Below, in pieces: positions 10,441-60,450 of a stretch of 64,000 bases of DNA (position 1 is the first letter of the stretch; every line of letters starts with the position of its first letter). This DNA comes from Eledone cirrhosa (lineage: Eukaryota), in assembly GCA_964016885.1 (NCBI GenBank), contig OZ024740.1, positions 321,160,001 to 321,224,000 on the forward strand, in the 5' to 3' direction. Below the pieces are notes generated by a model, which saw nothing but the letters and a program-made list of their open reading frames with translations, was not told where the DNA came from and did not search any database. Both the position numbers and the translations under genes were made by a program.

Positions 10441-10925
10441 CAGTCATGTGCAAACTGTGGCCTGCAAGCTGTGCGCAGTCCATTTGGATTTTTGAATGGT
10501 ACATCTAATTTCAAAATTGCTTGAATCTTTTAGTAGCGTGGCCCACCATATGATGAGCCACATCCTATGCAGCTTTTAGTAGCGTGGCCCACCATATGAT
10601 GAGCCACATCCTATGCAGCTTTTAGTAGCGTGGCCCACCATATGATGAGCCACATCCTATGCAGCTTTTAGTAGCGTGGCCCACCATATGATGAGCCACA
10701 TCCTATGCAGCTTTTAGTAGCGTGGCCCACCATATGATGAGCCACATCCTATGCAGCTTTTAGTAGCGTGGCCCACCATATGATGAGCCACATCCTATGC
10801 AGCTTTTAGTAGCGTGGCCCACCATATGATGAGCCACATCCTATGCAGCTTTTAGTAGCGTGGCCCACCATATGATGAGCCACATCCTATGCAGCTCATT
10901 GCTAAAAAAAGGTTGCCGATGCCTG
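10441..10925. mobile_element. hAT (Charlie-like) MITE with an internal tandem array
   Basis: Ends CAGTCATGTGCAAA / GTTGCCGATGCCTG; degenerate 8-bp TSD ATCTAGCA / GTCTAGGG. Confidence 0.6.
10528..10895. repeat. 8 perfect tandem copies of a 46-bp unit
   Basis: ttttagtagcgtggcccaccatatgatgagccacatcctatgcagc x8 = 368 bp, no spacers. Confidence 0.97.

Positions 10926-20707: not shown

Positions 20708-20708
<1 letters not shown>
20601..20708 (+). mobile_element. Short fold-back element related to family A
   Basis: gagctc...cgtttcaacagctagtt / aactagttgttgaaacg...gagctc hairpin plus tail abutting the TA array. Confidence 0.5.
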
Positions 20709-24289
<3,581 letters not shown>

Positions 24290-32855: not shown

Positions 32856-33008
32856 TCACTTTTGTAAACTGATGTTGTCGAGTCTCATCTGATCATAAGA
32901 CATCAACAACATAGTCAGCTCATATTTGTCGATCTTGCCATCTCTGTTGAGGTCACATTGCTCCAGTAGGACACGTTTCGATTCTTGAAGATCTTCATTG
33001 CTGTAATC
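32856..33008 (-). CDS. Cbp53E: Calbindin-32-like last coding exon (EF6 and stop)
   Basis: ttgcag|GATTACAGC...CAAAAGTGA, 153 nt, contains [18 protein letters not shown]. Confidence 0.93.
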   Translation of the reverse strand, partial: DYSNEDLQESKRVLLEQCDLNRDGKIDKYELTMLLMSYDQMRLDNISLQK

Positions 33009-33133: not shown

Positions 33134-33348
33134 CGAAGGAAATGTGGTAAGGAACCAGGTGGACCATAACGCACCAAAGTACTCAATACTTAGGGTAGTG
33201 TGGGTAATAGGAACGAGTAGGACCCCGACGGCTGAGCTCAAGCCGTTTCGACGGCTAATTCTGAGTCCAGAATTAGCCGTCGAAACGGCTTGAGCTCAGC
33301 CGTCGGGGTCCTACTCGTTCCTATATATATATATATAGAGAGAGAGAG

Positions 33349-33686: not shown

Positions 33687-36600
33687 TAGATATGAGTATA
33701 TAGCGAGTGTGTATAAGATGTTGGACTGACTGAGTGTATAATGATCAACCAAAATACATTTTATCTATCTACAAAATTTCTGCTTTCGTGATTTTTGTCA
33801 AAGCCTTCAAATTACTATTTTCTTTTTTGAATATGTCAAGGTTATTCATGTAATTTCTTGAACTTGGTACGATGTTTCAAATTCATTAATTAACGAAATA
33901 TTAAAACATTATTTCAGACAGAACAAGGCATATTCATTCCTCTCTGATGTCATATATTCAACAGCGGTTTTTGTGTACTTCCACGTACTTTAGAGTAAAT
34001 TACATTTCCCTCAAAATAGTAGAAAACACCCAGTAAACCAATCAGTTAAACATCACAAATATTTCAGTTAAATATATGAAGAAGTTCTGCCAAAGGGACA
34101 CGATCGGAGAAAAGTTTCTACTGTTGTTGAAGTATTTTCAAGTTTTAGCTGAATAAATAATCGTCGTACCGAGAAATACTAGTCGAGAAACAATATTTTA
34201 TTTGGCTAAAATGTCCAACTTCAGTTTAAAACATTTGATTTCAGTACAATACGTCTAACTTCAATACAAATCATTCAATTTCACTTTAAAGCATTCAACT
34301 TCAATTTAAAACACCCAACTTCAGTTTAAAATATCTAATTTCAGTACAAAACATCCAACTTTAGTACAAAACAGCCAATTTCAGTTTAAAACCTTCAGTT
34401 TCAATTTGACACAACATAATGAATGAGTTAGTATTTATTGTAAATGGCTGTTTGCCAGTCTTCAACTAAGGCATTACACAATGCATCTAAATCAGAAGTA
34501 TCAATTCGTAAACGACCAAAATAAAATATATTAAAAAAATTGTACAAGATGTTGTGTGAAGCTGTTATACAGTGTAGTTAACTGGAAGAAATGTATAAAT
34601 TGTGTGAAATTATTGTACAGTTCACTGGAAGGATTGCACAAGATATGTCGAGCTGTTGTACAGTGTAGTTGAGATGAGGGAGTAGAGAAGTCACCGTGGT
34701 TAGTAAGAATTTACTTACTCTGTCGTACAAAGCAAAAACATGGTCCAAGTCATCTGTTGTAAATCCCTTTTCTCCCTGCAATGAAATCAATTACGAAATT
34801 GTAGATAATATCATCATTGGCATCAACAAATCACACATACGTGCCCCCCCCCCCATATATATATATATTGCAGAGATGTTGGTTATAATACAAATCCTAA
34901 CCTAACCTGGTAGGAATCAATCGATTAACAATATTTTTTTTGTTTCTTACTTTAAACATGGGACGGCACAGGAAATTTTCTTTTACTGGAAGCAATCTGG
35001 AAAAATAAAGATAAAAAAGTTTTATAATCACTACAACAAAATCCCACACACCAAGGGAGACAAACAGTACAAAAAACTTCATCCACCACACCATGCATAG
35101 AGATAAGTACCACAACGAAATCCCACCTACAAAACCATAGTAAGAAGCTTCAAAATAAAGCCCCACCTTCCGAGTCATAGTGACAAGCATCACAACAAAA
35201 CTCCGCCCCTAAACCAAGGGAGACAAGTACCACAACAAAACCCCGCCCACCAAGCCATAATTATAAACTTCACAACAAAACCATGTCAACAACATCACTG
35301 TGACAACCACCACCACCATAATGGTAAATCGGAGTTGAGTGGAAAAATATCGATAAAAATATCAATAAATGGGTTTTTAAACCCGAAAATATTTGAGATA
35401 ATTAAATTTGCTAAGGTAAAATTCTGTTGTCCTTATTCTTTCCTCTATAACGCCTATTACCTTGGCACCTTTAATATCCTATGCATTGTAGTGCTTTTAA
35501 ACTTATTTGTATCAATAAATGTATTTTAAGTTTATTTTTATATTTCCAACTAAACACCCCACTTTTAAGCTATAAACAAATGTTTTAAGAACAGTTTTTT
35601 TTTAAATTATTTTTTTTTGAATTTTCCGTTTTTTTAAGCGATCTGTGTTCCCATTTTTTAATATTTGAAAGTTCAGTCTTATGATCGATCTGGATTTTGT
35701 TATTCGATGTTATGAGGTTGGGGGCACTGTTGTTTGGTGTTATGATATTGGGGGTACTGTTGTTATTCGATGTTATGAGGTTGGGGGTACTGTTGTTTGG
35801 TGTTATGATGTTGGGGGTACTGTTGTTATTCGATGTTATGATGTTGGGGGTACTGTTGTTATTCGATGTTATGATGTTGGGGGTACTGTTGTTTGGTGTT
35901 ATGATGTTGGGGGTACTGTTGTTATTCGATGTTATGATGTTGGGGGTACTGTTGTTATTCGATGTTATGATGTTGGGGGTACTGTTATTCCATTTTATAA
36001 TTGACACCTAATCGAAGCTATATCTTTGATTCTATGCACCGAATGTTTATCTCAGTCTATACAATAACGATATACAACCAAATTGGAAGGGAGACCACAC
36101 TGTGATGGTAGTGTGTTTATATCTTTGCAGTACATCAATAACTACACCTATAATCAATGGTGGGACCACACTGTAATGGTAGTGTGTTTATATCTTTACA
36201 GTACATCAATGGTGGTTGTGTATTTAGCTCAGTCTGTACAACAATAATCACATATAGCCAAGGTGAAAGAGGAAGATAATGGTGTCAGTTGTAATTCTTA
36301 CTTACTTGGCCATTTCACTAAGCTGCAGTTTACCGTCGTTGTTTCGGTCAAAGAGTTTCAGCTGTGGAAAAATTATATATAAAAAAAGAAACGATGATAA
36401 TTTTGTAAAAATATCTGATATCGACAATCATCATCATGATTATCATCCTCATATTATTATTATTATTGTTTTTCCTTCTCCTTCAGTATTGTTTTCGTTA
36501 TATGCTGAGTGTCTTCCTGACACCTTGGGCAAATAAACTCACTGTCTACATTGGTAAGCCAGTTAACACACCACATTGATTATAATTTTCAGAGAGATAA

Positions 36601-39600
36601 TGCTCATCTCAATGCGTGTGCAGTACCAGTTAAAACAATTGTATGCACCTCTTGCAGAGAGGGTAAACCAAGGATCATTCTCAAATACTGTTCTGTTCAT
36701 TCCCAGTGCTCCCACAATCACTGGTATTGTAACGGCCTTGAGGTGACACATTATTTTCAATTTCAATGAGCAAATCTTTATATTTTCTTAGTTTGTCAAA
36801 TTATTTTGCCGCGATATTGTGATCACATGGGATGCTCATATCAAAAAATAAACAGGCCTTGCTATATTGGTCTTTTACAATTGGTCTATTAGCTTTTATG
36901 GCCCGGTCAGTATGTACAGGAAAGTTATTAGGGTCGGACGCCATGCTTTGATGCATAGAGTTACGGCTCTTGCCATTCTGAATTTAAATCCCGCCGAGGT
37001 TAACTGTGCCTTTCATCCTTACGGGGTCGATAAAATAAAGTACCAGTAATGCACTGGGTAATTGCTGGCCTTGTGCCTAAAGTAGAAACAATTATTATTA
37101 TTATTATTATCATTATTATTATTGGTCTAATCGGACGTATTTTGCTCGCTCCCAGTAAGTCGCTTTATTTGCCTGTTAAAATTATTTGTTGTTAAATATT
37201 TCTTGCTGTGTAAGGGATATAAGCCCTTATACTTTACCCTGTGAAGGGGAAAGTATAATATTTGGGCCTTTTGGCCCAAATATTTGAACTTTTTTTACAT
37301 TTTAAAAAATTTACGGAGAAAAAAAATAAACATGGCTGAGCCACGCCCCCCAGCGATATGTCTGCTGTCGTGCGACAACGACGTAGAAGTTGAGAGGAGC
37401 GCTACAGCGAAATTAACACAAATTGATAACACAAACACCACCACAAACAATGTAAACAAAGACACCAATGATACCAATGAGAACTCTAATTTTGAAAAAA
37501 AATGACAGTAACAGCGACAACGAAAATACAAATAACAAAAAAAAAAATGACAAATGCAACAACAATATCAACACCACTAACATGAAAACAAATAGCGACA
37601 ACACAAACAGCAACAATACCAACTGCACCGAGAACAACGGTGGCAACAAAGACAACAATGATAACAGCGACAGTGATAACAACAACACCAATAAGAACAA
37701 CGACAACGACAACAACACCCCCAACGAAAACAAGAAGAACACTTTCGCTGCGGCAGCAGCAAAAAATAGGCCATGCTTCAACATGGACCTCTCAAACGAA
37801 GATGAAAAGTTGGCCCAGGCATGGAAGCTCATCAAGCAAGAGCAAACCTGGGCAAACTTAACTGTCCCGGTAGAAGCTATTGAGGCAGTGGAGCGCAGAA
37901 CGGTGCATTATAGATGCATCTCAGCACAAACCAAAAGGGCAGCTTTAATCCCACAAGCAGATGTCGAAGTCGCGCTGAGGTGCATCAGAGAAGACACCGA
38001 ATACATAGAGAGAGGCAGACAGTACGGCACCATTTCAGTGTTGTTCAAGTCAGAAGCCCTCGCTATGAAACACGCTATGACTCCTTGCAAAACTAGCAAG
38101 GTCATAATGTACCCATCCCACATGGGAAAAAGAACGGCCCGTCTCCGCATTCCCAGAATTCCACCAGGACTTGACATGTGATGGCTTCTGGGATGTGTGA
38201 TTGTGGAGGGGACGGATACCGTCCCTATAGAAGTGACCAGAACGGTCAGAGAGGACTGGTCCGGGGTTGACCTGGAGATCCTTCTCCAGATCAGGCCCGA
38301 GAATGGGAAGACAATCCCGGACCACATCCGCCTTCAGAATGGGACGGTCATTCACATTATGACCGAAGGCAAAAGGCCGCAGTGTTTTGTTTGTGGGAAA
38401 AAAACCCATTTGCGAGCCTTCTACCCTCAACTGCTGAAAGAGGCAAGGGGTCGAAAGGTTCCACTGCTGCCGACGCCGGGGCGAGGACCACAACCAATAC
38501 CAGCACCGGCAAAACCACCACCAACAACACCAATAGAAAGACCACCACCAACATTGACCACCCAGGGGGGAAACTAGGAAAGCTGTCACCCCCCCCCCCC
38601 CAAAAAAAAATACACACACCAATAAAACCATAAACATACATGCAGACACACTTACAGACACAGACCCCTCATCTACCAGTAGTGAAGATGAGGGAAAACC
38701 AAAATCCCTCAAAATACAAAAAAGGAAACACAAAAAGAAAAAGAAAACTCAACAAAGCACAAAATCACCCACAATAAAAAACGCAGACACCACCCACACA
38801 AACATCTCTCCAATAACACCAACATCAACACCAACATCAACACCACCATCACCATCACCAGAATCCCCCAAACGCAAACAACCTAAACAGACGCAAGAAC
38901 AAATATACACACAAACATCTAAAACCATAGACACCGCACTCACAACAAACACAGATACAACCGAAACAACACCACCAAAACCATCACCACCACAGACACG
39001 CAAACAAATAAAATCACACCAACAAAACATACAAAACTTCGTGCTCGTCAGGAGGGCCAACAAGGAACTGATGGCCCTATTAGCACGAAGTGAAAATATA
39101 CAAAAAGAGGGGGAAATTTTTAAATCGAGCACATTTCGCGTGCCGGAAGATTTGGTTCTGGTGCGAATGTCGCTCGATATATTCAAAGAAATACGAGACA
39201 GCTTTCCTCAGGACGTGGGAACACCGAACGTAAAACCCACTTCAAGACTTTTAAAGGGGTTCCCAAAAGAAACCCCACCAACTATGGAGGTCGAACAACC
39301 CGACCTTCACAAGAGCCCGGAAGGTAAGTAAACCTTCCTCTCTCTCTTTTTAACCTGCCAACATGGCCGTATTAAGAGTAGGATGTTTAAATGTTCGAGG
39401 CCTGGGACCGTCCTGGAAGCAGGGTCACCTGCTCAACGACCTCAGGTCTATAGAAATGGATGTAATTGCCGTCAGCGAGACCAGGATTTCCGACACGCGC
39501 GCACTAGCCCCCATTTTCGACGACTATCAGATCTTTGCATCTGTTAGTCGGCCGGGAATGGAAGGCAGGGTGGCAGTGCTGTTTAGGAAAGGCCTGGACC

Positions 39601-42600
39601 TCGAGGTAAGGTCGATCTTCCGGGACCCGGACGGGAAGCTGGTGGTCCTGGACGTGAACAATAATGAAGGTGGTGCCTTTAGACTGGTGGCCGTCTATGC
39701 TCCTACTGGGGAAGGACGGCCGGACTTCTTTAGACGCCTGGAAGCCTTTCTGGGTACGTCTCGCCCTTTACTGTTATCGGGGGACTGAAACGGCATCTTA
39801 GACGCACGCTGGGACTGTGTGGGAGTATCCGATAGGAGCGGGGGTGCAAAAGCCTCAAGAACCTGATCAGCCAGTTCCAACTGTCTGACAGGTACCGACT
39901 AGATTTCCCTAATGCGCCAGTGTGGACCTGGGCTAACCGCATAGGGTCATCTAGATCGTATATAGACAGGATATTCATTAGGAAAATAGACAGAAATAGT
40001 GTAAGCTGTCCACGTTTTGAAACGGTCGCCTATTCAGATCACAAGTTTGTGATCTGTATGGTCGGCCTAGATAAGACGCGTAGGTTAGGACCTGGTTACT
40101 GGAAGCTAAACATGTAATTTCCGGCACGTAAGGCTTACCGGGACCAGGTCAACAATTTAGTTAAGAAAAAGTTGACAGGGGGAATCGTCAACAATAGATG
40201 GTGGGGGGGGGGGGGGGGGGGGGGCTCTCAAAAGAGAGATTAGAGTAATGTCGATAGAGTTTAACAAAGAAGTAGCATTAGAGAAAAATAGAAAGGAGGG
40301 GGAGTTGGTAGATAAGTTAGACGAGGCTATTTGTAGTGGCATCGCAACTGACGTGCTAGCGGCGAGAATGGCATTAGACCATTTCTTCAATGCGAAACAC
40401 GAAGGTTGCATTGTCAGAGCTAAGGCGCGTGTTCTGAGAAACGAGGGAACCAAAGCTGTTCGATGGGCCCGCGTGCCAGAGGCGCAGCGTGGTAATAAAA
40501 CCACGATTCGGTCTTTGACGGACCGAGACGGGCACGAGCTGAGCGATTCCAAGAGGATGTGTGAGGCCTTTCGCCAACATTTTGCTCGGTTGTTCGGGGG
40601 AAGTGGCGGGTCAGAGATGGTGGCGGACTTCAGTCCCTACCTTGATGGCTTGCCGCAACTCTCGACGGCTGACGCTGGGCGCTGCGAAAGGCCAATTACT
40701 TCAGCCGAGATTCAGGATGCCCTTGTCGGCTTCATGAGGCGCAAGTCACCCAGTTTGGATGGTCTGCCCTACGAGCTTTACGTAAATATGCCAAATTTGT
40801 TCTCCAATCTCCTCGAAGCCCTCTACTGCAACTGGCAACAAAACGGGAGTAGTGACGCTGATAAGGAAAGACGAGAACAAGAGGGACACATTAGACAATT
40901 TCAGGCCCATAACTCTGCTCAACACAGAGTTTAAGATTTTGGCCAGGGTGTTAGCGAAGAGGTTGGCGCTTGTCGTCGGGGATTTGGTTGGGGAGGCGCA
41001 AACTTGCGCAATCCCAACCAGGTCCATACACGACAACCTCCACCTAATGCGATACATCATAGAGAGGGTAGGGTGTAAACCTGGCTTCGGTGGGGCTCTG
41101 ATCAATTTAGATCTATCGAAAGCATTCGATAGGGTCGACCATCGGTACCTGGAGGCTGTCCTCAAGGCGGCTGGCTTCGGCCCCGTCTTCAGAAGCTGGA
41201 TCGCTGCAATGCACAGCGGCACCTGCTCGATGGTCAAAATTAATGGCCACCTCTCGGAACCGTTTCAGGTCTCCCGATTGGTCCGTCAAGGGTGCCCTCT
41301 CTCCTCCCTTCTGTACGTATTGACTCTCGAGCCTTTACTGCGGAAGATGGAGCTGTTGCAGGGCATCCCGCTCGAACCGGGACGCGGAAAGGCTGTGTCG
41401 GCTTATGCGGACGACATCACCGTGACGGTGTCGGACACCTCAGCAATCGAGGTGGTCGGCAACTTATTGGAGGAATATGAAAGGTTGACGGGAGCAAAAC
41501 TTAACCCGGAAAAGTCAGTGAGCTTGCAACTCGGCACCTGGAGAGGCAAGTCCATGCCGTCCAACAGCGTCGTTAGGCGCTGGACGGACGGACCGGTAAA
41601 GTTGCTAGGGGTTTGGTTCGGGCCAGACCTCCAGGTGGATAAGAATTGGGACGAGGTGACGGGCAGGGTAGTCAGTCTCACCCAGAAATGGGCTGGGATG
41701 AAGCTATCACTGAAAGGTCGGGCGGAGGTGGCGAACGCGTACATCGCGTCCGTCATCTACTACCGTCTAACTGTCGTCCCTTGCCCCCGTTCGCGCCTCG
41801 CCATCTTGGAGCGGCTCCTCTTCAAATTCTTGTGGAGGGGTCAGATTCCACTGGTGAGGCGGTCCATCTGCTGCCAGCACTCTCTACGTGGAGGGCTGGG
41901 CATGCCGTGGCTAATGATGCGCAGGCACGCGCTGAGGCTGCGGCATCTCCAGATATTCTGCCTAAACGGTGAACAGGTGTGGTCGCCGTTTGTCAGACGG
42001 GCCTTTCCGCAGCTCGTTTCTTTGACTGAGTTGCAGTCCTGGGTCAAGAAGAGACCGAGACTGGGTGACTGGCATCTGGAATGTTGCCAGGCACTCACTA
42101 CCCTCTACCAGGCGGGCAATGCGGTCAGTGGAACTTCCACTCTCGAGTTCTATCGAGGATTAGTGGTGGGCAAGTGCGACGACGCATTCGGAGAGGCTCT
42201 GGGAGTCAACGAAGTCGAACTAACCAGTCTGTACCGGAGGACTTTCGAGCCGGGGACGATGGATAATTTCCAAAAATCCCTCGCTTGGCAGTGCTACGGG
42301 GGGGCACTGCCGGTTCGAGATAAACTCTACAGGCACGGAAGTGCTGTCAGACGGACCTGCCCGAGATGCGCGCAGAGCGACGAAACCGTTCTGCACGCAC
42401 TCGTCCAGTGTCCGTGCATTACTGACTTGTGGAGTTATGTTGAACAGCTGTTGTCGTGTGTAGAACGGATCCGGCTATCGGCCGAGTCCATAGTGAAGAT
42501 CGACCCGTCGCCTTCTTTTGGCCAAGAAGGGCAGGCAATTTTCCTCTGTCTGGTGGCAGTAGCGAAAGAGGTTGTATGGTGGACGAGGTTGAAAGGACTG

Positions 42601-45600
42601 AAGACAGACACTTTTCTCTTCGGCCAATCCCTCATCAACTTTTTCAAGTTTCACTTGGAAAGGAAGGTGAGGGTGGAGAGAGAAGCGCTGCCCCCCAGTA
42701 CATTTGCTGAAAGGTGGGTGATTGTGGCGAGAATGGCCCGTGTGAGTGGGCCTACTCTGGTCATGCGGCTGTAGGTAGGTAAATTTGAAGAGGAGAGGGG
42801 TGCCCTTCCAGGGTGCTCTCGAAGCGTCGGGTCGTTCAGGACTGGTGGGGTACCTGAGCGAACCCTAGGTGGTCATCCCCCCATTGGGGAATTTTTTCTT
42901 GTTGTAATTTTATTGTTACTTTATTGTTACTTTGTTATTGTTACTTTGTTATTGTTATTCATATTGTTTACTCGATTTTTCTGTAAAACCCCACTGTCCC
43001 AGTCTTTTGTATTGTCCCCTATATGTCGGCCCTTGTGGCCAATAAATGAAATCATTATTATTATTATTATTATTATTTCCATTATCATTTTTATTGCGCA
43101 TCATTAATGCTTTACCGAGCACAGCTCTGTGCGCCTAGGGTATTAACAGTGTTATTTGATATGCTGTGGTAAAGAGAACGTAAAGACAGTAGGCAACTTG
43201 TAATATCAAGATATGTGATATGACTGATATGACTGAGAAGATATATGATATAACTTACAATGGTATCAGCATATATTATATGACTGAGAAGATATATTAT
43301 ATAACTTACAATGGTATCAGCGTATATGATATGACTGAGAAAATATATGTTATAACTTACAATGATATTAGTATATATGATATAACTTACAATGGTATCA
43401 GCATATGTGATAAGTTCGTCTTCAGTGATATCCTTTTCTGTGTTGTTCTGTTTCAGCAGGTGACGGAGAAATTTCTGAAAATATCAACAAAAATAAACAA
43501 TTGTTAGCAACAATAACAACACGACGACAAAAGCCAAAACAACAACACCAACAGCAGCAGCAGCAGCAGTACCAGTAATAACTACAACAGCAGCAATGTC
43601 AACACCAAACACAACAACAACAATCACAACAGCAAAAACAACAACAGCAGCACAAGTAAGAACAATAGCTACAGCAACAACAACACCAAACACAACAACA
43701 GCGACAACAATTTTGGGATTCTATTAATGCTATTGTTATTGTTGTTGTTGATATGTAATAATAATTGTTTCTACTTTAGGCACAAGGCCAGCAATTATCC
43801 CAGTGCATTACTGGTACTTTATTTTATCGACCTCGTAAGGATGAAAGGCAAAGTCAACCTCGGCGGGATTTGAACTCAGATCGTAAAGGGACGTAACTAT
43901 GCTGGAATATGTAATAATAATGAAGTATCTACATTAGTTGTTATTTCTATTGAAGTACGATATAAACTTTATTATTTTGGATTGGCAGTATCGGTAGAGG
44001 GTCGGACACCATGCTTTTCAACATAGTTACGTCCCTTTACGATCTGAGTTCAAATCCCACCGAGGTTAACTTTGCCTTTCATCCTTACGGGGTCGATAAA
44101 ATAAAGTACCAGTAATCCACTGGGATAATTGCTGGCCTTATGCCAAAAGTAGAAACAATTATTTATACGTTTATTATATTAATTTACCAGATTTATGTGA
44201 AATGTAGGCCTCCAATGTTAGTGCTAATCCCAGTCCAGATGTGAAATGTAGGCCTCCAATGTTAGTGCTAGTCCCAGTCCAGATGTGAAATGTAGGCCTC
44301 CAATGTTAGTGCTAATCCCAGTCCAGATGTGAAATGTAGGCCTCCAAAGTTAGTGCTAGTCCCAGTCCAGATGTGAAATGTTGGTTTCCAAAATTAGTGC
44401 TAGTCCCAGTCCAGATGTGAAATGTTGGTTTCCAAAATTAGTGCTAGTCCCAGTCCAGATGTGAAATGTAGGCCTCCAAAGTTAGTGCTAGTCCCAGTCC
44501 AGATGTGAAATGTAGGCCTCCAAAGTTAGTGCTAGTCCCAGTCCAGATGTGAAATGTTGGTTTCCAAAATTAGTGCTAGTCCCAGTCCAGATGTGAAATG
44601 TAGGCTTCCAAAGTTAGTGCTAGTCCCAGTCCAGATGTGAAATGTTGGTTTCCAAAGTTAGTGCTAGTCCCAGTCCAGATGTGAAATGTTGGTTTCCAAA
44701 ATTAGTGCTAGTCCCAGTCCAGATGTGAAATGTAGGCTTTCAAAGTTAGTACTAGTCCCAGTTCAGATGTGAAATGTAGGTCTCTAAAGTTAGTACTCGT
44801 CCCAGCCCAGATGTCAAATGTAGGCTTCCAAAATTAGTGCTAGTTCCAATACAGATGTGAAACGTAGGCCTCCAAAGTTATGCTAGTTCCAGTCCAGATG
44901 TGAAATATAGGCCAGTGCAAAGCTGGTAATATGGCCGGACCAGATGTGAAATATAAAACCCCAAAGCTAGTGATAGTTCCAGACTAGATCTGAACTATAG
45001 GCCTGTGCAATGTTGGTACTAGGTCTAGATCATGTGAAATGTAAACCTCCAGACCTGGTAATAGGCCCAGTCCAGATATTTAAATTACCCTCACTTTAAA
45101 CCTCTATGCAACCAGTCATAAATACATTTGATTTATTTATGGGTTACAGGGCTATATACATGGACATGTATTGTATATGATGTAATAAGAAGAGTTGAAA
45201 TTAACGCATGCAAGATTTCACAGCTCTAACATCACTCCTTTTCAATCAGCCTATGAAGTTTTCAGCCCATTCTCGTATTTACATGGAGCAGAATACAACA
45301 AACGAATTAGAATTGTTGTTGCTGCTGTTGTTGTTGTTGTTGTTGAAGATGATGATGATGATCTCAACTAAAGTATTGATTATATCTTGTCTGTTATGTC
45401 TGTTATATATTTTCAATGACCACAGTCTGATATATATGGGTGGTTTCTTGGTCCCACAATAAAACATTGTATATAGGTGATAGATTCATTGCCATCAGAC
45501 TGTGGTCATTGAAAATATATAACTGACATAACAGACAAGATATAATCAATACTTTAGTTGAGAATATCATCATCATCATCATCATCATCAACAGCAACAA

Positions 45601-48394: not shown

Positions 48395-51300
48395 CATACC
48401 CCCCCCCACACACACACAGACACACTATAAATATTGTTTATTATGAGACCAAATAGCCGCCCATAAGTATACATTGTTTTTTTTTTATTGTGAGAACATA
48501 TTTAGGGGTCAATGAATTGTAACAGCTTATTTAACATTGGTTGTTTATTTAATGATTTATCTAACAAATATTATCAATTTTAGTTTTCTAAGTGTGACTT
48601 CATGAAATATAGACACAGCTGCAAAGAAAAATTTGGGAGATATTGAATATTGAATATTAAAAAAAAAATCCATTTTGCTGGCATTTTTTGATAATACACT
48701 TTGAAAGTCGAAATATTAAAGTCGGCTTGTATCTTACACAGATGTTACAACAATCTTTTGTTGTATTGTTGCATCTGTTATATATTATATTTTATTGATC
48801 TGTGCAAGAAAAGAAGTGCAGTAAGCGTGTGACATACCACAAGATCAAAGTAATAAATATTTCGTGGTCATCAGCTGTTGTGAACTACACAGTTGAGAAG
48901 ATAAGATCCCACCTCCTCTATAATGGACTGCTCTGATCAGAGGTGGATATAAAATCGTAGTCAATGCACAATAGTCCAATACTTTGTCGACACTGTCATT
49001 TTGCTCCCGATGATGGATCCTCCGTCGGTTTTCAGTGATTAGTACTCAGTTATTCAATCAACTGAACATCCAATCTTAGGAATTAATGTGTAAGTGGTTG
49101 AATATTCCACAGACATGTGTACCCTTAACGTAATTCTCAGGGAGATTCATCCAGACAAAATATGTGACATGATTGGACCTTTGATTTACAAGTACAATCC
49201 ATCCATTAAGCTTCCATATAAATTCTGTCTCTCCAATTTCCGTCACATGGACTTTGGTCATCTAGTTAATGACATTTGACCAAGATGCATAAAATGGAAT
49301 CGAACCCGGGAGATCATGATTACGACGACCCAGTCTCGTGACAAAGTGTCACGCCGAATTTCCCTGAGAATCACCTTGAGGATACGTATGTCTGTAGAAT
49401 GGGCAGTCACTTGCACGCAGGGTTAGATTTAGACATTGGGGGGCCCGGAGCACTGGAGATTTGGAGTGGCCCACATACACAAAAAAATAGAATACGCAAC
49501 AAACCTCCCAATTTTACATATCAAAGTTAGCTTGGCGCAAGTAATTGGAATTGAAAAGTAATATATACAGGTATTAAATTCAAAAATTCTAACCATCCTA
49601 AAATCAAAAATCCCAGTTGAGGGCACAAATGAATTTCTACGGCCGTCGCTGGTGAGGCTCCCAACTGCAGGGGGGCCCGGGACAATTTCCACCCCCTCCC
49701 TTCATTAAATCCGAACCTTGCTTGCAGGTTAATTTCACCAGTAGGCTTTTTGCTGTTAATAGAACAACTGAAATAATCATCGTTGAAACCAACAGAGATC
49801 CATTCCATCCCAGAAAATAACAATAAATATCTTTCACTGAGATGAACATTGTAAGGTTATCGTTGAGTAATTTGAATATTTTCCCCCAGTATATCTGATG
49901 TATCATTTAAAAGTCTAAATATCAAAATATACGTCTAATATGTTATGACATGCATTTGTTTCGTCATATGATTAATTAATTCATTCATTCATATTTATTC
50001 AAAATACAGCATACGACATTTTTTTTTACCAACAGGTATCTTGGTCAGCCTATGAACCTTTCATCCAATCTTCGTATATTAGAAGATTTGAAATAATAAA
50101 TTTAATGTAAAGAAATAAAGAAAACTACATTTCTTGAAAATTAAAAGCGTCGCTGTGAAACAGGGAATAAAGGAAAGTATGTTTACACTTCTTTTTTTTC
50201 ACAGCGGGGCTTCTAATTCAAAAACTGTCATTGGAGCTAAGTTAAATTTACTTTAAATGAAAATATAAGATTGAGAAACTATATGAACCATTGTAGATTT
50301 TTCTATATTTAGTTAGATGATCTCTGCTTTATATTATTCTTTAAAATGTAATTTGGGCCACTGAGGGATCTTTATAGTATAAACAGAGGCGTAAACAAGA
50401 AAAATAGTGCCTATGGCAAGTAGTGAAATTGCGTCCCTGCTCAGCACTCCATTTTTAACTATAGACCTAATAATTCATACAAATAGTTTAGTGATCCAGC
50501 CACTATAGTGCTTCTCATCCATGTTAATCAAAGACAGATCATACATCTCACTCACCGACGATAGCTTATCTGACGAGCCACGCTTGCCATACACTAGTTG
50601 CACCTCTGGGTATGATATAATATACACATGGGCCATTGAGGGGGATCTTTGTGACATATAATATACATATGGGCCATAGAGGTGATCTATGCTGTATAAT
50701 ATATATATTTATTTAATCAATTTAAACGTCCGCATAGAGCTAGTACGCCATGAGAGACTAGGACAAGTATCTAGGTGTTCTTACAGCTGAGAAACCCAAA
50801 ACAAGGTATACAGAGATAAGTGAATATAAAAATAAAACAAAATAAGATAAAATAAATTAAATAGGGAAAGCCAACTGGAGGCAATATAAGCATAGATTAA
50901 AGATAAAGAAAACTTAGGAAACAAGGGAAGCTGTAAAGCAGCTAGGAGGTTCTGTTGTACATGTGGGCCACTGAGGTGTTCTGTGTGGTATGGTATAATA
51001 CACATGTGGGCCACTGAGGTGATCTGTGTGGTATGATATAATATATATGTGGTCCACTGAGGTGTTCTGTGTGGTATGATATAATATACATGTGGGCCAC
51101 TGAGGTGTTCTGTGTGGTATGGTATAATATACATGTGGGCCACTGAGGTGTTCTGTGTGGTATGGTATAATACACATATGGGCCACTGTGGTATTCTGTG
51201 TGGTATGATATAATACACATGTAGGCCACTAAGGTGATCTGTGTGGTATGGTATAATACACATGTGGGTCACTGTGTTGATCTGTGTGGTATGATATAAT

Positions 51301-54300
51301 ATACATGTGGGCTACTGTGGTGTTCTGTGTGGTATGGTATAATACACATGTAGGCCACTAAGGTGATCTGTGTGGTATGGTATAATACACATGTGGGTCA
51401 CTGTGTTGATCTGTGTGGTATGATATAATACACATGTGGGCCATTGAGGTGTTCTGTGCGGTATGATTTAATATTCATGTGGGCCATTGAGGTGATCTGT
51501 GTGGTATGATATAATACACATGTGGGCCATTAAGGTGTTTGTGGTATGATATAATATACATGTGGGTCATTGAGATGTTCTGTATGGTATGATATAATCT
51601 ACATGTGAGCTACTGAGGTGTTCTGTGTGGTATGGTATAATATACATGTGGGATACTGAGGTGTTATGTGTGATATGGTATAATATACATGTGGGCCATT
51701 GTGGTGTTCTGTGTGGTATGGTATAATACACATGTGGACCATTGAGGTGTTCTCTGGTATGATATAATATATATGTGGGCCATTGAGGTGTTCTGTGTGG
51801 TATGATATACTTGTGGGCTACTGAGGTGTTCTGTGTGGTATGATATAATATACATGTGGTCCACTGAGGTGTTCTGTGTGGTATGATATAATATACATGT
51901 GGGCCACTGAGGTGTTCTGTGTGGTATGATTTAATACACATGTGGGCCATTGAGGTGTTCTGTGTGGTATGATTAATATACATGTGGTCCACTGAGGTGT
52001 TCTGTGTGGTATGATATAATATATATGTGGGCCATTGAGGTGTTCTGTGTGGTATGATATACTTGTGGGCTACTGAGGTGTTCTGTGTGGTATGATATAA
52101 TATACATGTGGTCCACTGAGGTGTTCTGTGTGGTATGATATAATATACATGTGGGCCACTGAGGTGTTCTGTGTGGTATGATTTAATACACATGTGGGCC
52201 ATTGAGGTGTTCTGTGTGGTATGATTAATATACATGTGGTCCACTGAGGTGTTCTGAGTGGTATGATATAATACACATGTAGGCCATTGAGGTGTTCTGT
52301 GTGGTATGATATAAAATACATGTGGTCCACTGAGGTGTTCTGTGTGGTATGATATAATATACATGTGGGCCATTTAGGTGTTCTGTGTGGTATGATATAA
52401 TATACATGTGGTCCATTGAGGTGTTCTGTGTGGTATGATATAATATACATGTGGGCCACTGAGGTGTTCTGTGTGGTATGATATAATATACATGTGGGCC
52501 ACTGAGGTGTTCTGTGTGGTATGGTATAATACACATATGGGCCACTGTGGTATTCTGTGTGGTATGATATAATACACATGTAGGCCACTAAGGTGATCTG
52601 TGTGGTATGGTATAATACACATGTGGGTCACTGTGTTGATCTGTGTGGTATGATATAATACACATGTGGGCCATTGAGGTGTTCTGTGCGGTATGATTTA
52701 ATATTCATGTGGGCCATTGAGGTGATCTGTGTGGTATGATATAATACACATGTGGGCCATTAAGGTGTTTGTGGTATGATATAATATACATGTGGGTCAT
52801 TGAGATGTTCTGTATGGTATGATATAATCTACATGTGAGCTACTGAGGTGTTCTGTGTGGTATGGTATAATATACATGTGGGATACTGAGGTGTTATGTG
52901 TGATATGGTATAATATACATGTGGGCCATTGTGGTGTTCTGTGTGGTATGGTATAATACACATGTGGACCATTGAGGTGTTCTCTGGTATGATATAATAT
53001 ATATGTGGGCCATTGAGGTGTTCTGTGTGGTATGATATACTTGTGGGCTACTGAGGTGTTCTGTGTGGTATGATATAATATACATGTGGTCCACTGAGGT
53101 GTTCTGTGTGGTATGATATAATATACATGTGGGCCACTGAGGTGTTCTGTGTGGTATGATTTAATACACATGTGGGCCATTGAGGTGTTCTGTGTGGTAT
53201 GATTAATATACATGTGGTCCACTGAGGTGTTCTGTGTGGTATGATATAATATATATGTGGGCCATTGAGGTGTTCTGTGTGGTATGATATACTTGTGGGC
53301 TACTGAGGTGTTCTGTGTGGTATGATATAATATACATGTGGTCCACTGAGGTGTTCTGTGTGGTATGATATAATATACATGTGGGCCACTGAGGTGTTCT
53401 GTGTGGTATGATTTAATACACATGTGGGCCATTGAGGTGTTCTGTGTGGTATGATTAATATACATGTGGTCCACTGAGGTGTTCTGAGTGGTATGATATA
53501 ATACACATGTAGGCCATTGAGGTGTTCTGTGTGGTATGATATAAAATACATGTGGTCCACTGAGGTGTTCTGTGTGGTATGATATAATATACATGTGGGC
53601 CATTTAGGTGTTCTGTGTGGTATGATATAATATACATGTGGTCCATTGAGGTGTTCTGTGTGGTATGATATAATATACATGTGGGCCACTGAGGTGTTCT
53701 GTGTGGTATGATATAATATACATGTGGGCCACTGAGGTGTTCTGTGTGGTATGATATAATATACATGTGGGCCATTGAGGTGTTCTGTGTGGTATGATAT
53801 AATATACATGTGGGCTACTGTGGTGTTCTGTGTGGTATGGTATAATATACATGTGGGCCATTGAGGTGTTCTGTGTGGTATGATATAATATACATGTGGG
53901 CCATTGAGGTGTTCTGTGTGGTATGATATAATACACATGTGGGCCACTGAGGTGTTCTGTGTGGTATGGTATAATATACATGTGGGCCATTGAGGTGTTC
54001 TGCGTGGTATGATATAATATACATGTGGGCTACTGAGGTATTCTGTGTGGTATGATATAATATACATGTGGGCTACTGAGGTGTTCTGTGTGGTATGATA
54101 TAATATACATGTGGGTTACTGTGGTGATCTGTGTGGTATGATATAATATACATGTGGGCTACGGAGGTGTTCTGTGTGGTATGATATAATATACATGTGG
54201 GTTACTGTGGTGATCTGTGTGGTATGATATAATATACATGTGGGCTACTGAGGTGTTCTGTGTGGTATGATATAATATACATGTGGGTTACTGTGGTGAT

Positions 54301-57300
54301 CTGTGTGGTATGATATAATATACATGTGGGCTACGGAGGTGTTCTGTGTGGTATGATATAATACACATGTGGGCCATTGAGGTGTTCTGTGTGGTATGAT
54401 ATAATATACATGTGGGCTACTGAGGTGTTCTGTGTGGTATGATATAATACACATGTGGGCCATTGAGGTGTTCTGTGTGGTATGATATAATATACATGTG
54501 GGCTACTGAGGTGTTCTGTGTGGTATGATATAATATACATGTGGGTTACTGTGGTGATCTGTGTGGTATGATATAATATACATGTGGGCTACGGAGGTGT
54601 TCTGTGTGGTATGATATAATATACATGTGGGCTACGGAGGTGTTCTGTGTGGTATGATATAATATACATGTGGGCTACTGTGGTGATCTGTGTGGTATGA
54701 TATAATAAACATGTGGGCCATTGAGGTGTTCTGTGTGGTATGATATAATATACATGTGGGCTACTGAGGTGTTCTGTGTGGTATGATATAATATACATGT
54801 GGGCTACTGAGGTGTTCTGTGTGGTATGATATAATACACATGTGGGCCATTGAGGTGTTCTGTGTGGTATGATATAATATACATGTGGGCCATTGAGGTG
54901 TTCTGTGTGGTATGATATAATATACATGTGGGCCATTGAGGTGTTCTGTGTGGTATGATATAATATACATGTGGGCCATTGAGGTGTTCTGTGTGGTATG
55001 ATATAATATACATGTGGGCTAATGAGGTGTTCTGTGTGGTATGATATAATCTACATGTGGTCCAATGAGGTGTTCTGTGTGGTATGATATAATATATATG
55101 TGGGCTACTGTGGTGATCTGTGTGGTATGATATAATATACATGTGGGCTACTGAGGTGTTCTGTGTGGTATGATATAATATACATGTGGGCCACTGAGGT
55201 GTTCTGTGTGGTATGATATAATATACATGTGGGCTATTGAGGTGTTCTGTGTGGTATGATATAATATACATGTGGTCCACTGAGGTGTTCTGTGTGGTAT
55301 GATATAATACACATGTGGGCTACTGAGGTGTTCTGTGTGGTATGATATAATATACATGTGGGCCACTGAGGTGTTCTGTGTGGTATGATATAATATACAT
55401 GTGGGCCATTGAGGTGTTCTGTGTGGTATGATATAATACACATGTAGGCCATTGAGGTGTTCTGTGTGGTATGATATAATACACATGTGGGCCACTGAGG
55501 TGTTCTGTGTGGTATGATATAATATACATGTGGTCCACTGAGGTGTTCTGTGTGGTATGATATAATATACATGTGGGCTACTGTGGTGATCTGTGTGGTA
55601 TGATATAATATACATGTGGGCCACTGAGGTGTTCTGTGTGGTATGATATAATATATATGTGGGCCACTGAGGTGTTCTGTGTGGTATGGTATACTATACA
55701 TGTGGGCCATTGAGGTGTTCTGTGTGGTATGATATAATATACATGTGGGCTATTGAGGTGTTCTGTGTGGTATGATATAATCTACATGTGGGCTACTGAG
55801 GTGTTCTGTGTGGTATGATATAATCTACATGTGGGCTACTGTGGTGATCTGTGTGGTATGATATAATATACATGTGGTCCACTGAGGTGTTCTGTGTGGT
55901 ATGATATAATATATATGTGGGCCACTGAGGTGTTCTGTGTGGTATGGTATACTATACATGTGGGCCATTGAGGTGTTCTGTGTGGTATGATATAATACAC
56001 ATGTGGGCCATTGAGGTGTTCTGTGTGGTATGATTTAATATACATGTGGGCTACTGAGGTGTTCTGTGTGGTATGATATAATATACATGTGGGCCACTGA
56101 GGTGTTCTGTGTGGTATGATATAATATACATGTGGGCCACTGAGGTGTTCTGTGTAGTATGATATAATATACATGTGGTCCATTGAGGTGTTCTGTGTGG
56201 TATGATATAATACACATGTGGGCCACTGAGGTGTTCTGTGTGGTATGATATAATATACATGTGGGCCACTGAGGTGTTCTGTGTGGTATGATATAATATA
56301 CATGTGGGCCACTGAGGTCTTCTGTGTAGTATGATATAATACACATGTGGGCCATTGAGGTGTTCTGTGTGGTATAATATATTACACATGTGGGCCACTG
56401 AGGTGTTCTGTGTGGTATGATATAATACGCATGTAGGCCATTGAGGTATTCTGTGTGGTATGATATAATATACATGTGGGCCACTGAGGTGTTCTGTGTG
56501 GTATGATATAATATACATGTGGGTCATTGAGGTGTTCTGTGTGGTATGATATAATATACATGTGGGCTACTGAGGTGTTCTGTGTGGTATGATATAATAT
56601 ACATGTGGGTCATTGAGGTGTTCTGTGTGGTATGATATAATATACATGTGGGCCATTGAGGTATTCTGTGTGGTATGATACAATATACATGTGGGCCACT
56701 GAGGTGTTCTGTGTGGTATGATATAATATACATGTGGGCCACTGAGGTGTTCTGTGTAGTATGATATAATACACATGTGGGCCATTGAGGTGTTCTGTGT
56801 GGTATGATATAATACACATGTGGGCCACTGAGGTGTTCTGTGTGGTATGATATAATATACATGTGGGCCATTGAGGTGTTCTGTGTAGTATGATATAATA
56901 TACATGTGGTTCATTGAGGTGTTCTGTGTGGTATGATATAATACACATGTGGGCCACTGAGGTGTTCTGTGTGGTATGATATAATACACATGTGGGCCAT
57001 TGAGGTGTTCTGTGGTATGATTTAATATACATGTGGGTCATTGAGGTGTTCTGTGTGGTATGATATAATATACATGTGGTCCACTGAGGTGTTCTGTGTG
57101 GTATGATATAATACACATGTAGGCCATTGAGGTGTTCTGTGTGGTATGATATAATATACATGTGGTCCACTGAGGTGTTCTGTGTGGTATGATATAATAC
57201 ACATGTGGGCCATTGAGGTGTTCTGTGGTATGATTTAATATACATGTGGGTCATTGAGGTGTTCTGTGGTATGATATAATACACATGTAGGCCATTGAGG

Positions 57301-58914
57301 TGTTCTGTGTGGTATGATATAATATACATGTGGGCCACTGAGGTGTTCTGTGTGGTATGATATAATACACATGTAGGCCATTGAGGTATTCTGTGTGGTA
57401 TGATATAATATACATGTGGGCCATTGAGGTATTCTGTGTGTTATGATATAATATACATGTGGGCCACTGAGGTGTTCTGTGTGGTATGATATAATATACA
57501 TGTGGGCCACTGAGGTGTTCTGTGTGGTATGATATAATATACATGTGGGTCATTGAGGTGTTCTGTGTGGTATGATATAATACACATGTGGGCCATTGAG
57601 GTGTTCTGTGGTATGATTTAATATACATGTGGGCTACTGAGGTGTTCTATGTGGTATGCTATAATATACATGTGGGCCACTGAGGTGTTCTGTGTGATAT
57701 GATATAATATACATGTGGGCCACTGAGGTGTTCTGTGTGGTATGATATAATATACATGTGGGCTACTGAGGTGTTCTGTGTGGTATGATATAATATATAT
57801 GTGGGCCACTGAGGTGTTCTGTGTGGTATGATATAATATACATGTGGGCCACTGAGGTGTTCTATGTGGTATGCTATAATATACATGTGGGCCACTGAGG
57901 TGTTCTATGTGGTATGCTATAATATACATGTGGGCCACTGAGGTGTTCTGTGTGATATGATATAATATACATGTGGGCCACTGAGGTGTTCTGTGTGGTA
58001 TGATATAATATACATGTGGGCTACTGAGGTGTTCTGTGTGGTATGATATAATATATATGTGGGCCACTGAGGTGTTCTGTGTGGTATGATATAATATACA
58101 TGTGGGCTACTGAGGTGTTCTGTGTGATATGATATAATATATATGTGGGCCATGGGGTAAAACTACAAAAAAATCAAAGGTTTTCCGTTACAAAGAGAAA
58201 TTATATATTTCTGCTTTAAACAGTGGGGTGGAATAAGCGGGGGCGTTGGAATAAGTTGGGTGGGTGGGTGTAAAATAAGTAATTTTTCTAGGTTGTCTTC
58301 ATTGATTTTTAAAAAAAAATAGAATTAGTTGTTTAGTTTTCACATATTGAGACCCCAACCCATCCTATTTATGGAATTTCTAGTAACGTACTTTTTTTTG
58401 TCATGTATAATATTTTTTAATATCTAACGAAAATTAATTGTCACAGGAATGCTATCACCTAAAATAAAATTTTGCCGGAGATAGATTAGCAAAATTTAAT
58501 AAGTGGGGGTTGGAATAAGAGCGTGGGTGGTGGTGGTGGTGGTGGTGGGGGGGGGGGAATAAGGCGGACAAGGGGGTGGTAAAAATCTGAAAAATTGATA
58601 AGCGGGGGGTGGGGTTTTGGGGACGATTATTCGAGACCCGAGAGTACTTTATTTTATCGACCTCAGAAGGGTGAAAAGCAAAGTTAACCTTGGCAGCAGG
58701 ATTTTATCTCTGAACATAAAACCAGAGCGTATGTATTTGTCCATCTCTCTAATGACTCTGCCAATCCACCAATCTTACTTATAATAGAAATATATTTTTA
58801 TCTATTATTTATCTATTATATTGTGATGCATCATGCACTGATGGCAGTGTGTCTTACCTTCAATTCATCAGCTTCTATATAACCGCTGTGGTCAGTATCA
58901 TATTTCTTCCATGT
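32856..58914 (-). CDS. Cbp53E: Calbindin-32/Cbp53E-like six-EF-hand Ca-binding protein (calbindin/calretinin/secretagogin family), 3' seven coding exons; 5' exons not found in this window
   Basis: Exons 58914-58858, 43474-43391, 36361-36306, 34996-34951, 34775-34719, 33626-33555 and 33008-32856 have AG acceptors and GTAAG donors. They join in frame (525 nt) to [174 protein letters not shown]. Four EF loops and the family motif [15 protein letters not shown] are present. Confidence 0.95.
33133..33323 (-). mobile_element. Fold-back element family A in the last calbindin intron
   Basis: Perfect ~56-bp arms taggaacgagtaggacccc...ctaattctg / cagaattag...ggggtcctactcgttccta, left tail, TA flanks. 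Confidence 0.8.
33555..33626 (-). CDS. Cbp53E: Calbindin-32-like exon (EF5)
   Basis: ttacag|GATAAAAAT...GAAGAG|gtaaga, 72 nt, [24 protein letters not shown]. Confidence 0.94.
34719..34775 (-). CDS. Cbp53E: Calbindin-32-like exon
   Basis: ttgcag|GGAGAAAAG...GACAGA|gtaagt, 57 nt, [19 protein letters not shown]. Confidence 0.93.
34951..34996 (-). CDS. Cbp53E: Calbindin-32-like exon
   Basis: ttccag|ATTGCTTCC...TTTAAA|gtaaga, 46 nt, (K)[15 protein letters not shown]; its phase matches the previous exon. Confidence 0.94.
35695..35990. repeat. 30/33-bp minisatellite
   Basis: tgttatgatgttgggggtactgttgttattcga and a 30-bp variant, about 9 copies. Confidence 0.93.
36306..36361 (-). CDS. Cbp53E: Calbindin-32-like exon (EF4)
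   Basis: ccacag|CTGAAACTC...ATGGCCAA|gtaagt, 56 nt, [18 protein letters not shown](K). Confidence 0.94.
36500..36870 (-). mobile_element. R4/Dong-like RLE retrotransposon 3' fragment
   Basis: [28 protein letters not shown] / [15 protein letters not shown], a typical RLE C-terminus. Confidence 0.7.
36925..37108 (+). mobile_element. tRNA-derived SINE with (ATT)n tail
   Basis: Same core as 5093-5300. Confidence 0.85.
37332..39331 (+). pseudogene. Tx1-like ORF1 (Asn-rich N-terminus, Zn knuckle, Pro/Thr-rich C-terminus)
   Basis: ATG at 37332, TFAAAA motif, [15 protein letters not shown] knuckle; frameshifts at A and C runs and TGA at 38179. Confidence 0.8.
39363..42774 (+). pseudogene. Tx1-like ORF2 (APE endonuclease, RT, C-terminal Cys motif)
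   Basis: LNVRGL, VSET, VYAP, GD*N, YIDRIF, SDHK, PGYWKLN; [28 protein letters not shown]; [18 protein letters not shown]; stops at 39786 and 40115, frameshifts near 40210 and 40850. Confidence 0.93.
43215..43410. repeat. 30/51-bp tandem repeat containing the exon end and splice donor
   Basis: Four copies of tataacttacaatg(g/a)tat. Confidence 0.9.
43391..43474 (-). CDS. Cbp53E: Calbindin-32-like exon (EF3-EF4 linker)
   Basis: ttttcag|AAATTTCTC...GATACCATT|gtaagtt, 84 nt, [28 protein letters not shown]. Confidence 0.9.
43763..43907 (-). mobile_element. tRNA-derived SINE, 5'-truncated
   Basis: Reverse complement of the SINE core. Confidence 0.85.
43978..44160 (+). mobile_element. tRNA-derived SINE
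   Basis: ggattggcagtatcggtagag...gagttcaaatc...taccagt...agaaacaatt. Confidence 0.88.
44187..45078. repeat. 44-bp minisatellite, about 20 copies
   Basis: ccagatgtgaaatgtaggcctccaaagttagtgctagtcccagt, decaying toward the right. Confidence 0.95.
45315..45605. mobile_element. Fold-back element flanked by (GAT)n/(GTT)n
   Basis: Arms tctcaactaaagtattg...cacagtctgat / atcagactgtg...caatactttagttgaga; the microsatellites are mirrored too. Confidence 0.6.
45622..45812 (-). mobile_element. SINE (ggatgcccttcc family)
   Basis: Reverse complement of 25395-25752; cut off by the mariner insertion. Confidence 0.75.
45817..46697 (+). mobile_element. Mariner element, internally deleted, with long TIRs
   Basis: TIRs tacgaggtgtgtcagaaaagttccagga / tcctggaacgtttctgacacaccccgta, TA TSD; [22 protein letters not shown]...VFEWCK, ITGDES*IFEYDPE, C-terminal QGDYFEG. 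Confidence 0.92.
46729..46933 (-). mobile_element. Fold-back element family A
   Basis: Near-identical to 33133-33323; the centre carries CTGAATGA on the minus strand. Confidence 0.8.
47002..47179 (-). mobile_element. Fold-back element family B (short arms)
   Basis: Tail ttggaaaatgtgtgagat and arm start match 2743-3134. Confidence 0.75.
47385..47766 (-). mobile_element. Degenerate fold-back element family C
   Basis: Tail resembles 29070-29115; hammerhead 3' half GAAA-TGGCGCCG-TA on the minus strand near 47563-47576. Confidence 0.55.
47799..47985 (-). mobile_element. tRNA-derived SINE
   Basis: Full reverse complement of the SINE family. Confidence 0.88.
49418..49720. mobile_element. MITE (CAGGGCCGGATTTA-like ends)
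   Basis: CAGGGTTAGATTTA / TAAATCCGAACCTTG with subterminal gggggcccgg motifs. Confidence 0.55.
50957..58153. repeat. 7.2-kb 43-bp satellite inside a calbindin intron
   Basis: acatgtgggccactgaggtgttctgtgtggtatgatataatat, roughly 165-170 units; degenerate outliers near 50350 and 50605-50700. Confidence 0.98.
58220..58646. mobile_element. MITE, same family as 9408-9606
   Basis: Right TIR attattcgagacccgagagta and repeated ggggttggaataag motifs. Confidence 0.6.
58645..58772 (-). mobile_element. Degenerate tRNA-derived SINE
   Basis: tactttattttatcgacc...gaaaagcaaagttaacct...ctgccaatccacc. Confidence 0.75.
58858..58914 (-). CDS. Cbp53E: Calbindin-32-like exon (EF3)
   Basis: ttctag|ACATGGAAG...GAATTGAAG|gtaagac, 57 nt, [19 protein letters not shown]. 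Confidence 0.93.
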
Positions 58915-59099: not shown

Positions 59100-60450
59100 G
59101 GTATAATGTCGTGATGGTATGGAGCAGAGATGGTATGGTGTAGAGATGGTAAGGTGTGGAGAAGGTATGGCGTAGAGATGGTATGGTATGGAGACGGTAT
59201 GGTGTGGAGATGGTATGATGTGGAGATAGTATGGTGTGGAGACGGTATGGTAGGGAGATGGTATGGCATAGAGATGGTATGGTATGGAGATGGTATGGTG
59301 TGGAGATGGTATAGTGTGGAGATAGTATGGTGTGGAGACGGTATGGTAGGAAGATGGTTTGACGTAGAGATGGTATAGCGTAGAGATGGTATGGTGTGGA
59401 GATGGTATGGTGTGGAGATAGTATGGTGTGAAGATGGTATGGTGCGGAGATGGTATGGTGTAAAGATGGTATGGTGTAAAGATGGTATGGTATGGAGATG
59501 GTATGGTGTGGAGATAATATGGTGTGACGATGGTATAGTGCGGAGATGGTATGGTGTGGTGATGGTATGTTATGGAGATAGTATGGTGTGGTGATGGTGA
59601 TGGTATGGTGTAGAGATGGTATGGTGTGGAGACGGTATAATGTGGAGATGGTATGGTGTGGAGATGGTATTGTGTAGAGATGGTATAATGTGGAGATGGT
59701 ATGGTGTATAGATGGTATGGTGCAGAGATGGTATGGTGTGGAGATGGTATGGTGTGGAGATAGTATGGTGTGGAGACGGTATGGTAGGGAGATGGTATGG
59801 CATAGAGATGGTATGGTATGGAGATGGTATGGTGTGGAGATGGTATAGTGTGGAGATAGTATGGTGTGGAGACGGTATGGTAGGAAGATGGTTTGACGTA
59901 GAGATGGTATAGCGTAGAGATGGTATGGTGTGGAGATGGTATGGTGTGGAGATAGTATGGTGTGAAGATGGTATGGTGCGGAGATGGTATGGTGTAAAGA
60001 TGGTATGGTGTAAAGATGGTATGGTATGGAGATGGTATGGTGTGGAGATAATATGGTGTGACGATGGTATAGTGCGGAGATGGTATGGTGTGGTGATGGT
60101 ATGTTATGGAGATAGTATGGTGTGGTGATGGTGATGGTATGGTGTAGAGATGGTATGGTGTGGAGACGGTATAATGTGGAGATGGTATGGTGTGGAGATG
60201 GTATTGTGTAGAGATGGTATAATGTGGAGATGGTATGGTGTATAGATGGTATGGTGCAGAGATGGTATGGTGTAGAGATGGTATGGTGCGGAGATGGTAT
60301 GGTGTATAGATGGTATGGTGGGGAGATGGCATGGTGTAGAGATGGTATGGTGTAGAGATGGTATGGTGCGGAGATGGTATGTTGTAGAGATGGTATGTTG
60401 TGGAGATGGTATGGTGCAGAGATGGTATAGAATAGCTATGGTATAGAGTG
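59100..60450. repeat. 16-bp minisatellite
   Basis: gagatggtatggtgtg units with a 534-bp higher-order duplication. Confidence 0.95.

Follow-up and report, generated by a model that had tools for sequence, protein, structure and literature searches.

The window, by which we mean the whole 64,000-nucleotide stretch of Eledone cirrhosa DNA that was analyzed, carries on its minus strand seven exons of calbindin-32 and a distal alternative last exon, located by tblastn with named octopod and cuttlefish calbindin-32 proteins. The seven exons follow the order of the octopod proteins with 67–95% identity, and the translation of the last exon matches Octopus calbindin-32 with 78% identity. The loop motifs of EF3, EF4 and EF6 are found directly in the window. 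The exon at 43391..43474 is an 84-nt coding exon of phase 0-0 that encodes the EF3 exit helix, the linker and the first part of the EF4 entering helix; it is 79% identical to residues 150–177 of the Octopus vulgaris/sinensis protein P0001 (tblastn). The preceding 57-nt exon with the EF3 loop lies at 58858..58914, as placed by tblastn and its loop motif, and the next exon at 36306..36361 (56 nt, EF4 loop) starts at P0001 residue 178 with the acceptor that is joined to 43391. Four more exons, for EF5 and EF6, were located by tblastn at 34996–34951, 34775–34719, 33626–33555 and 33008–32856, all on the minus strand. No calbindin 5′ exons were found within the 64-kb window. The exons match in order those of calbindin-32 from O. 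vulgaris/sinensis (XP_029638064.2, CAI9715677.1), O. bimaculoides (XP_052830120.1) and Argonauta hians, and judged by this similarity the gene is an octopod calbindin-32 of the calbindin/calretinin/secretagogin (hexa-EF-hand) group. The window exons differ from all those octopod proteins, none of which has an insert after the 84-nt exon. Solved structures among the relatives are those of secretagogin and calbindin (2be4, 6jlh, 6fie, 2f33); the 28-residue exon alone has no solved-structure match, and Pfam gives no match for the exon plus its read-through translation. An earlier sequence-only reading of this DNA had named a calbindin exon with an acceptor at 36361, and both tblastn and the spliced joint described below show that it was right.

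Alternative forms of the gene are suggested at other points. The last calbindin exon can either stop at 32856 or continue from a likely internal donor after 32860 to the distal exon at 4072–3946 (minus strand), about 29 kb away, which is 88% identical to the end of the O. vulgaris protein P0001. The short ending is that of P0007 and the long one that of P0001, and related tails occur in squid-like proteins. P0002 is missing precisely the EF3-loop exon, which suggests exon skipping in relatives, and Mytilus calbindin-32 isoforms (P0032/P0034, P0033/P0035, P0043/P0048 and others) contain two versions of the EF4-loop exon, which suggests mutually exclusive exons.

The end of the 84-nt exon together with its donor, ATT|GTAAGTTAT, is present in four copies on the minus strand, with no further copies elsewhere in the 64-kb window, and an exact search of the same window finds the 12-mer ATTGTAAGTTAT four times on the minus strand and not at all on the plus strand. 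From –3 to +9 all four donors have the same sequence, and they set exon ends at 43391, 43361, 43310 and 43259. The copied donors are thus offset from 43391 by 30, 81 and 132 nt, in units of 30, 51 and 51 nt. All three units are in phase 0 and free of stop codons, and the open frame runs on to a stop at 43114. This fourfold recurrence, with its exon ends, offsets and open frame, had been proposed before and is confirmed here, including the translations. TRF describes the array as a period of 51 with 3.2 copies and 89% matches at 43225–43387.

The core of the repeat consists of 12 exon nucleotides and 18 intron nucleotides around 43391. In successive units, 9, 12 and 12 of the last 12 exon bases and 17, 17 and 18 of the first 18 intron bases are identical to the original. 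Unit 1 (43361..43390, 30 nt, minus strand) contains the authentic donor, 18 nt of intron start and a degenerate exon-end copy (9/12), and ends at the second donor. Unit 2 (43310..43360) and unit 3 (43259..43309), both 51 nt and on the minus strand, begin with the second and third donor, respectively, and end at the third and fourth; each has an exon-end copy that matches at 12 of 12 and 19 of 21 bases, and 21 extra bases that hold the motif TTCTCAG. This acceptor-like motif, noted earlier in the 51-nt units, is present in both and again in a partial fourth unit, with the AG ending at 43335, 43284 and 43233. The partial unit (43199..43258, minus strand) comprises the fourth donor, TTCTCAG, a 9-nt local duplication and, at 43219–43199, a stretch that matches the exon end at 15 of 21 bases but is followed by no GT and is either an old decayed copy or a look-alike that seeded the array. 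Units 2 and 3 differ from each other in ways that alter two residues and are silent at two codons, and a 34-nt exact repeat is common to the units (43406 and 43274).

Among six calbindin exon donors tested, only that at 43391 has its 12-mer recurring downstream with at most one mismatch, which argues that the array is not a chance occurrence. Words resembling the exon word ATCACATAT (43411) lie 30, 58, 81, 111, 132, 162 and 192 nt downstream of it, and the look-alike 9-mers at 30, 81, 132 and 192 nt continue the spacing in multiples of three past the last donor (192 nt). Tandem repeats abound in the window (112 TRF rows), so that copying events are common here. The TRF array, the anatomy of the units, the single repeated donor out of six and the look-alike words all support the earlier suggestion of a minisatellite born from a splice site.

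We aligned all 128 homologues fetched, with P0001 as reference numbering. None of the 128 has any residue between positions 177 and 178, and the stretch 168–177 is 10 residues long in every one of them, while the linker at 150–168 varies from 17 to 19 residues. The exon end at 43391 is therefore a conserved, authentic exon boundary. The words of the extension that the copied donors would add occur in 0 of the 128 homologues; an insert conserved in the proteins of relatives, as expected for functional alternative donors, is likewise present in 0 of 128, which speaks against such a function. No homologue in this set comes from Eledone cirrhosa or from a known carrier of the array, so the count shows constraint on the protein rather than non-use of the donors here.

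In the AlphaFold2 model of P0001, which has a mean pLDDT of 73.8 and values of about 90 around residues 171–190, the junction lies inside a predicted helix (167–181) that enters the EF4 loop at D182. An extension would accordingly fall within the predicted entering helix of EF4, four residues before the loop, and not in the linker. Its earlier placement just before EF4 is correct as to proximity to the loop, but the predicted position is inside the entering helix. The 44-residue extension is strongly hydrophobic, with a GRAVY of 1.18 compared to –0.78 for the exon, and contains 13 Ile and 8 Tyr. Both 51-nt units end in IIYADTI, which is identical to the last seven residues of the exon's helix end in O. 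bimaculoides (P0006), and they do regenerate the native end of the exon, as had been noticed. The forms with 27 and 44 additional residues would rebuild the end of the helix and, judging from their sequence, might be tolerated. The restoration of IIYADTI follows from the fact that the unit copies the exon end, and selection is not needed to account for it.

How surprising is the preserved frame? Two independent unit lengths are both multiples of three in 1 of 9 cases. When the intron-derived letters of a single unit are shuffled, 37% of the shuffles contain no stop, and a single substitution introduces one in 4% of cases. With two independent lengths and about 10 substitutions assumed, an array would be both in frame and open with a probability of ~0.03, which is low for a single array but applies to one chosen after the fact from a repeat-rich genome. 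Shuffling the whole extension (2.4% stop-free) was rejected as a null model, as it treats copied units as independent. Open frames are common behind such donors: of the 79 other GTAAG sites in the window, 12 are followed by a stop-free stretch of 44 codons and 32 by one of 17 codons. Of 33 minisatellite periods in the window (hand-picked from TRF, one per array, this array included), 10 are divisible by three. We also considered whether TTCTCAG could open cassette exons that keep the frame, and rejected this: all three possible mini-exons, preceded by introns of 26–107 nt, are 25 or 76 nt long, out of frame and interrupted by a stop at codon 6. That these mini-exons shift the frame and bear stops argues against a frame-keeping design. 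The in-frame, stop-free spacing is likely a by-product, and the earlier caveat that frame preservation could be due to chance is the likelier reading, given ~0.03 per array and the post hoc choice of the array.

Four of seven public runs were compared as contigs: X1 and X2, which are DNA-like and from the same sample, X4, and X5, a RAD-seq run from another sample. X4 comprises 88 million letters, compared to about 1400 million for X1 and X2, and its type is not on record. In X4 one contig with a depth of 165.3 joins 43391 to 36361 and skips 7029 bases. The joint, with 56 letters on its short side, has the ends CT..AC, which is GT..AG on the minus strand, and it is absent from X1, X2 and X5. 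As this joint is spliced, X4 is likely RNA and was taken as such. No joint from 43361, 43310 or 43259 is present among the 15 of 185 X4 joints listed.

A depth accounting gives a sharper view of the interval. The mean X4 depth over 43305–43520 is 65.8, and the spliced contig alone yields 65.81 when counted over 84+2 bases (the two extra bases are an AG found both at the acceptor and at the end of the upstream exon). This leaves –18 to +12 base-depth units, compared to the 120 that a 60-nt contig at a depth of 2 would add; by this accounting X4 has no contig on 43305–43390. Any form spliced from a downstream donor must cover part of 43305–43390, so none survives in the X4 contigs. The main contig passes the junction without a break, at a depth of 165. 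Over 43060–43304 the X4 depth is 1.01, in a bin that includes multi-copy sequence. The graph simplification of Minia3 drops minor paths from Logan contigs, according to the assembly portion of the Logan report (10.1101/2024.07.30.605881). X4 is a single run of one sample, with the tissue not on record and possibly from another individual or allele, and its simplified contigs lose rare variants. A dominant extended form in the X4 sample is unlikely. Isoforms with 10, 27 or 44 additional residues, as the sequence-only reading had proposed, gain no support from the sole joint seen, which uses 43391, from the interval 43305–43390 or from the 128 homologues, and one run viewed as contigs does not amount to their refutation.

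Arrays of this kind are known from human genes. The 37-bp VNTR in intron 7 of F7 has a first monomer that spans the exon–intron boundary and carries identical donors in tandem; in the minigene results presented by Borensztajn et al. (2006, PMC1557585), the copies are competent for splicing, yet only the upstream-most intact donor is used, even when the copies are in frame. As described in the same report, two pseudo-sites are used besides the authentic donor in the intron 2 minisatellite of 6-16 (IFI6) and in the 31-bp VNTR of CBS intron 13, and only the authentic donor is used in LMNB2 (100-bp monomer) and in PDGF intron 4 (81-bp monomer). By the definition in PMC1557585, the structural features of a junction-spanning minisatellite are present here: the first monomer crosses the authentic boundary, the donor is repeated exactly in the intron, and the units are arranged head to tail. 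As to usage, only the authentic donor is seen, in one contig-level run where minor use is invisible. We conclude that the array is a real junction-spanning (donor-reiterating) minisatellite of the kind reported for F7, IFI6, CBS, LMNB2 and PDGF, and that it is probably silent.

The comparison with the systems described in PMC1557585 also reveals differences. Like F7, the calbindin-32 array has a first monomer across the boundary and identical tandem donors of which only the upstream-most is seen in use, here in one contig-level run. Unlike F7, it has units of 30 and 51 nt, all multiples of three and stop-free, rather than 37 nt, three extra donors rather than four to eight, and an exon look-alike of 12–21 nt per unit rather than 4 nt, in a mollusc rather than a human gene. 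With IFI6 and CBS it shares a minisatellite that reiterates the junction into a ladder of donors; two pseudo-sites are used there, while here no use of a copy is seen in one run. In LMNB2 and PDGF, too, the exon–intron junction recurs in long monomers; the authentic donor is the only one used there, as it is the only one seen in use here, and the PDGF monomer length is likewise divisible by three. Those two arrays contain 10–18 copies compared to about three here. A literature search by title and abstract start found nothing on the calbindin-32 gene of octopus or other cephalopods.

Our favored explanation, which we hold to be likely, is that a short minisatellite copied the end of the calbindin-32 exon and its donor three times into the intron, and that the copies are silent pseudo-donors removed with the intron. 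The copies probably arose by slippage or unequal exchange between ATCACATAT at 43411 and its look-alikes in the AT-rich start of the intron, in which case the spacing of the look-alikes would set the unit lengths of 30 and 51 nt. Since the donors are identical from –3 to +9, site strength cannot decide the choice between them. The choice would instead rest on position, with the upstream-most donor winning as in human F7, and on exon context, and the unused copies would leave with the intron. The locus is a clear instance, in a mollusc, of an oddity already known. With four identical donors and only the first observed in use, it suggests that a cephalopod also follows the upstream-first rule of F7.

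The main rival is leaky, unregulated use of the first one or two copies at a low rate, because two copies are also used in IFI6 and CBS, as PMC1557585 describes. Minor in-frame transcripts with 10 or 27 additional residues would then evade nonsense-mediated decay and have no selected role. The identity of the four sites would allow it, and X4 is compatible with it inasmuch as Logan contigs lose minor paths. It is opposed by the interval 43305–43390, which holds no X4 contig, by the main contig that continues without a break at the junction, and by the lack of such use described in PMC1557585 for F7, LMNB2 and PDGF. We regard leaky use as unlikely.

A bolder proposal is that the 10-, 27- and 44-residue extensions are regulated and selected isoforms that retune EF3–EF4 calcium binding in some neurons, with the copy number setting the menu. 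Both independent unit lengths are multiples of three with the frame open (chance ~0.03), the 51-nt units restore the helix end, and isoform names and the distal last exon indicate that alternative splicing affects other parts of mollusc calbindin-32 genes. Yet no such isoform is seen in X4 (one run, contigs), none of the 128 homologues has an insert here, and the insert is very hydrophobic and breaks a predicted helix. In addition, the differences between units 2 and 3, although few sites, give no sign of coding constraint, and the spacing in multiples of three extends beyond the last donor to 192 nt, where frame is irrelevant. Selected isoforms are therefore highly improbable. We are also very doubtful of the broader notion that some neurons or individuals do use the copied donors, such that a young minisatellite acts as a heritable dial adding 10, 27 or 44 residues within the EF3–EF4 pair of a calcium buffer whose length does not otherwise vary; the protein would still fold as the 51-nt units rebuild the end of the EF4 helix. 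Should neurons use the copies, repeat expansion would have given a conserved calcium buffer in-frame isoforms at a site where none of 128 relatives tolerates an insert.

The idea that the extra copies are a mis-assembled exon end can practically be dismissed: the units do share the 34-nt exact repeat and the DNA runs that hold the array, X1 and X2, come from a sample that may be the assembly's own, but several substitutions separate the copies and short-read contigs cross the array without gaps, at 43245–43402 with two differences in X1 and at 43241–43402 with none in X2. The array is thus present in the DNA. The exact repeat exceeds the 31-letter words from which the contigs are built, so that a gain or loss of 132 nt would not show in X1 or X2. 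X5 has zero depth at 43305–43520.

The surroundings of the array are rich in repeats. The intron behind the donors contains, at 37100–43060, a multi-copy retroelement that lies on the plus strand, antisense to the gene; its open frame of 662 residues (40786–42771, plus strand) matches RVT_1 and zf-RVT. An inverted pair with 153-nt arms (43755–43907 and 44016–44168), 93% complementary and 108 nt apart, lies about 280 nt upstream of the acceptor of the 84-nt exon and could form double-stranded pre-mRNA at 43755–44168. In the intron before the last calbindin exon, a palindrome at 33207–33324 with perfect 57-nt arms, a 4-nt spacer and flanking TA runs looks like a small transposon-derived element. 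TRF also finds large intronic tandem arrays at 50958–58152 (43 nt × 168), 20708–24243 (a 3.5-kb TA run), 10527–10896 (a perfect 46 nt × 8), 59113–60428 (16 nt × 81) and 44195–45004 (44 nt × 18). A GC-rich stretch at ~18800–19400 on the minus strand has translations that we take to resemble reverse transcriptase.
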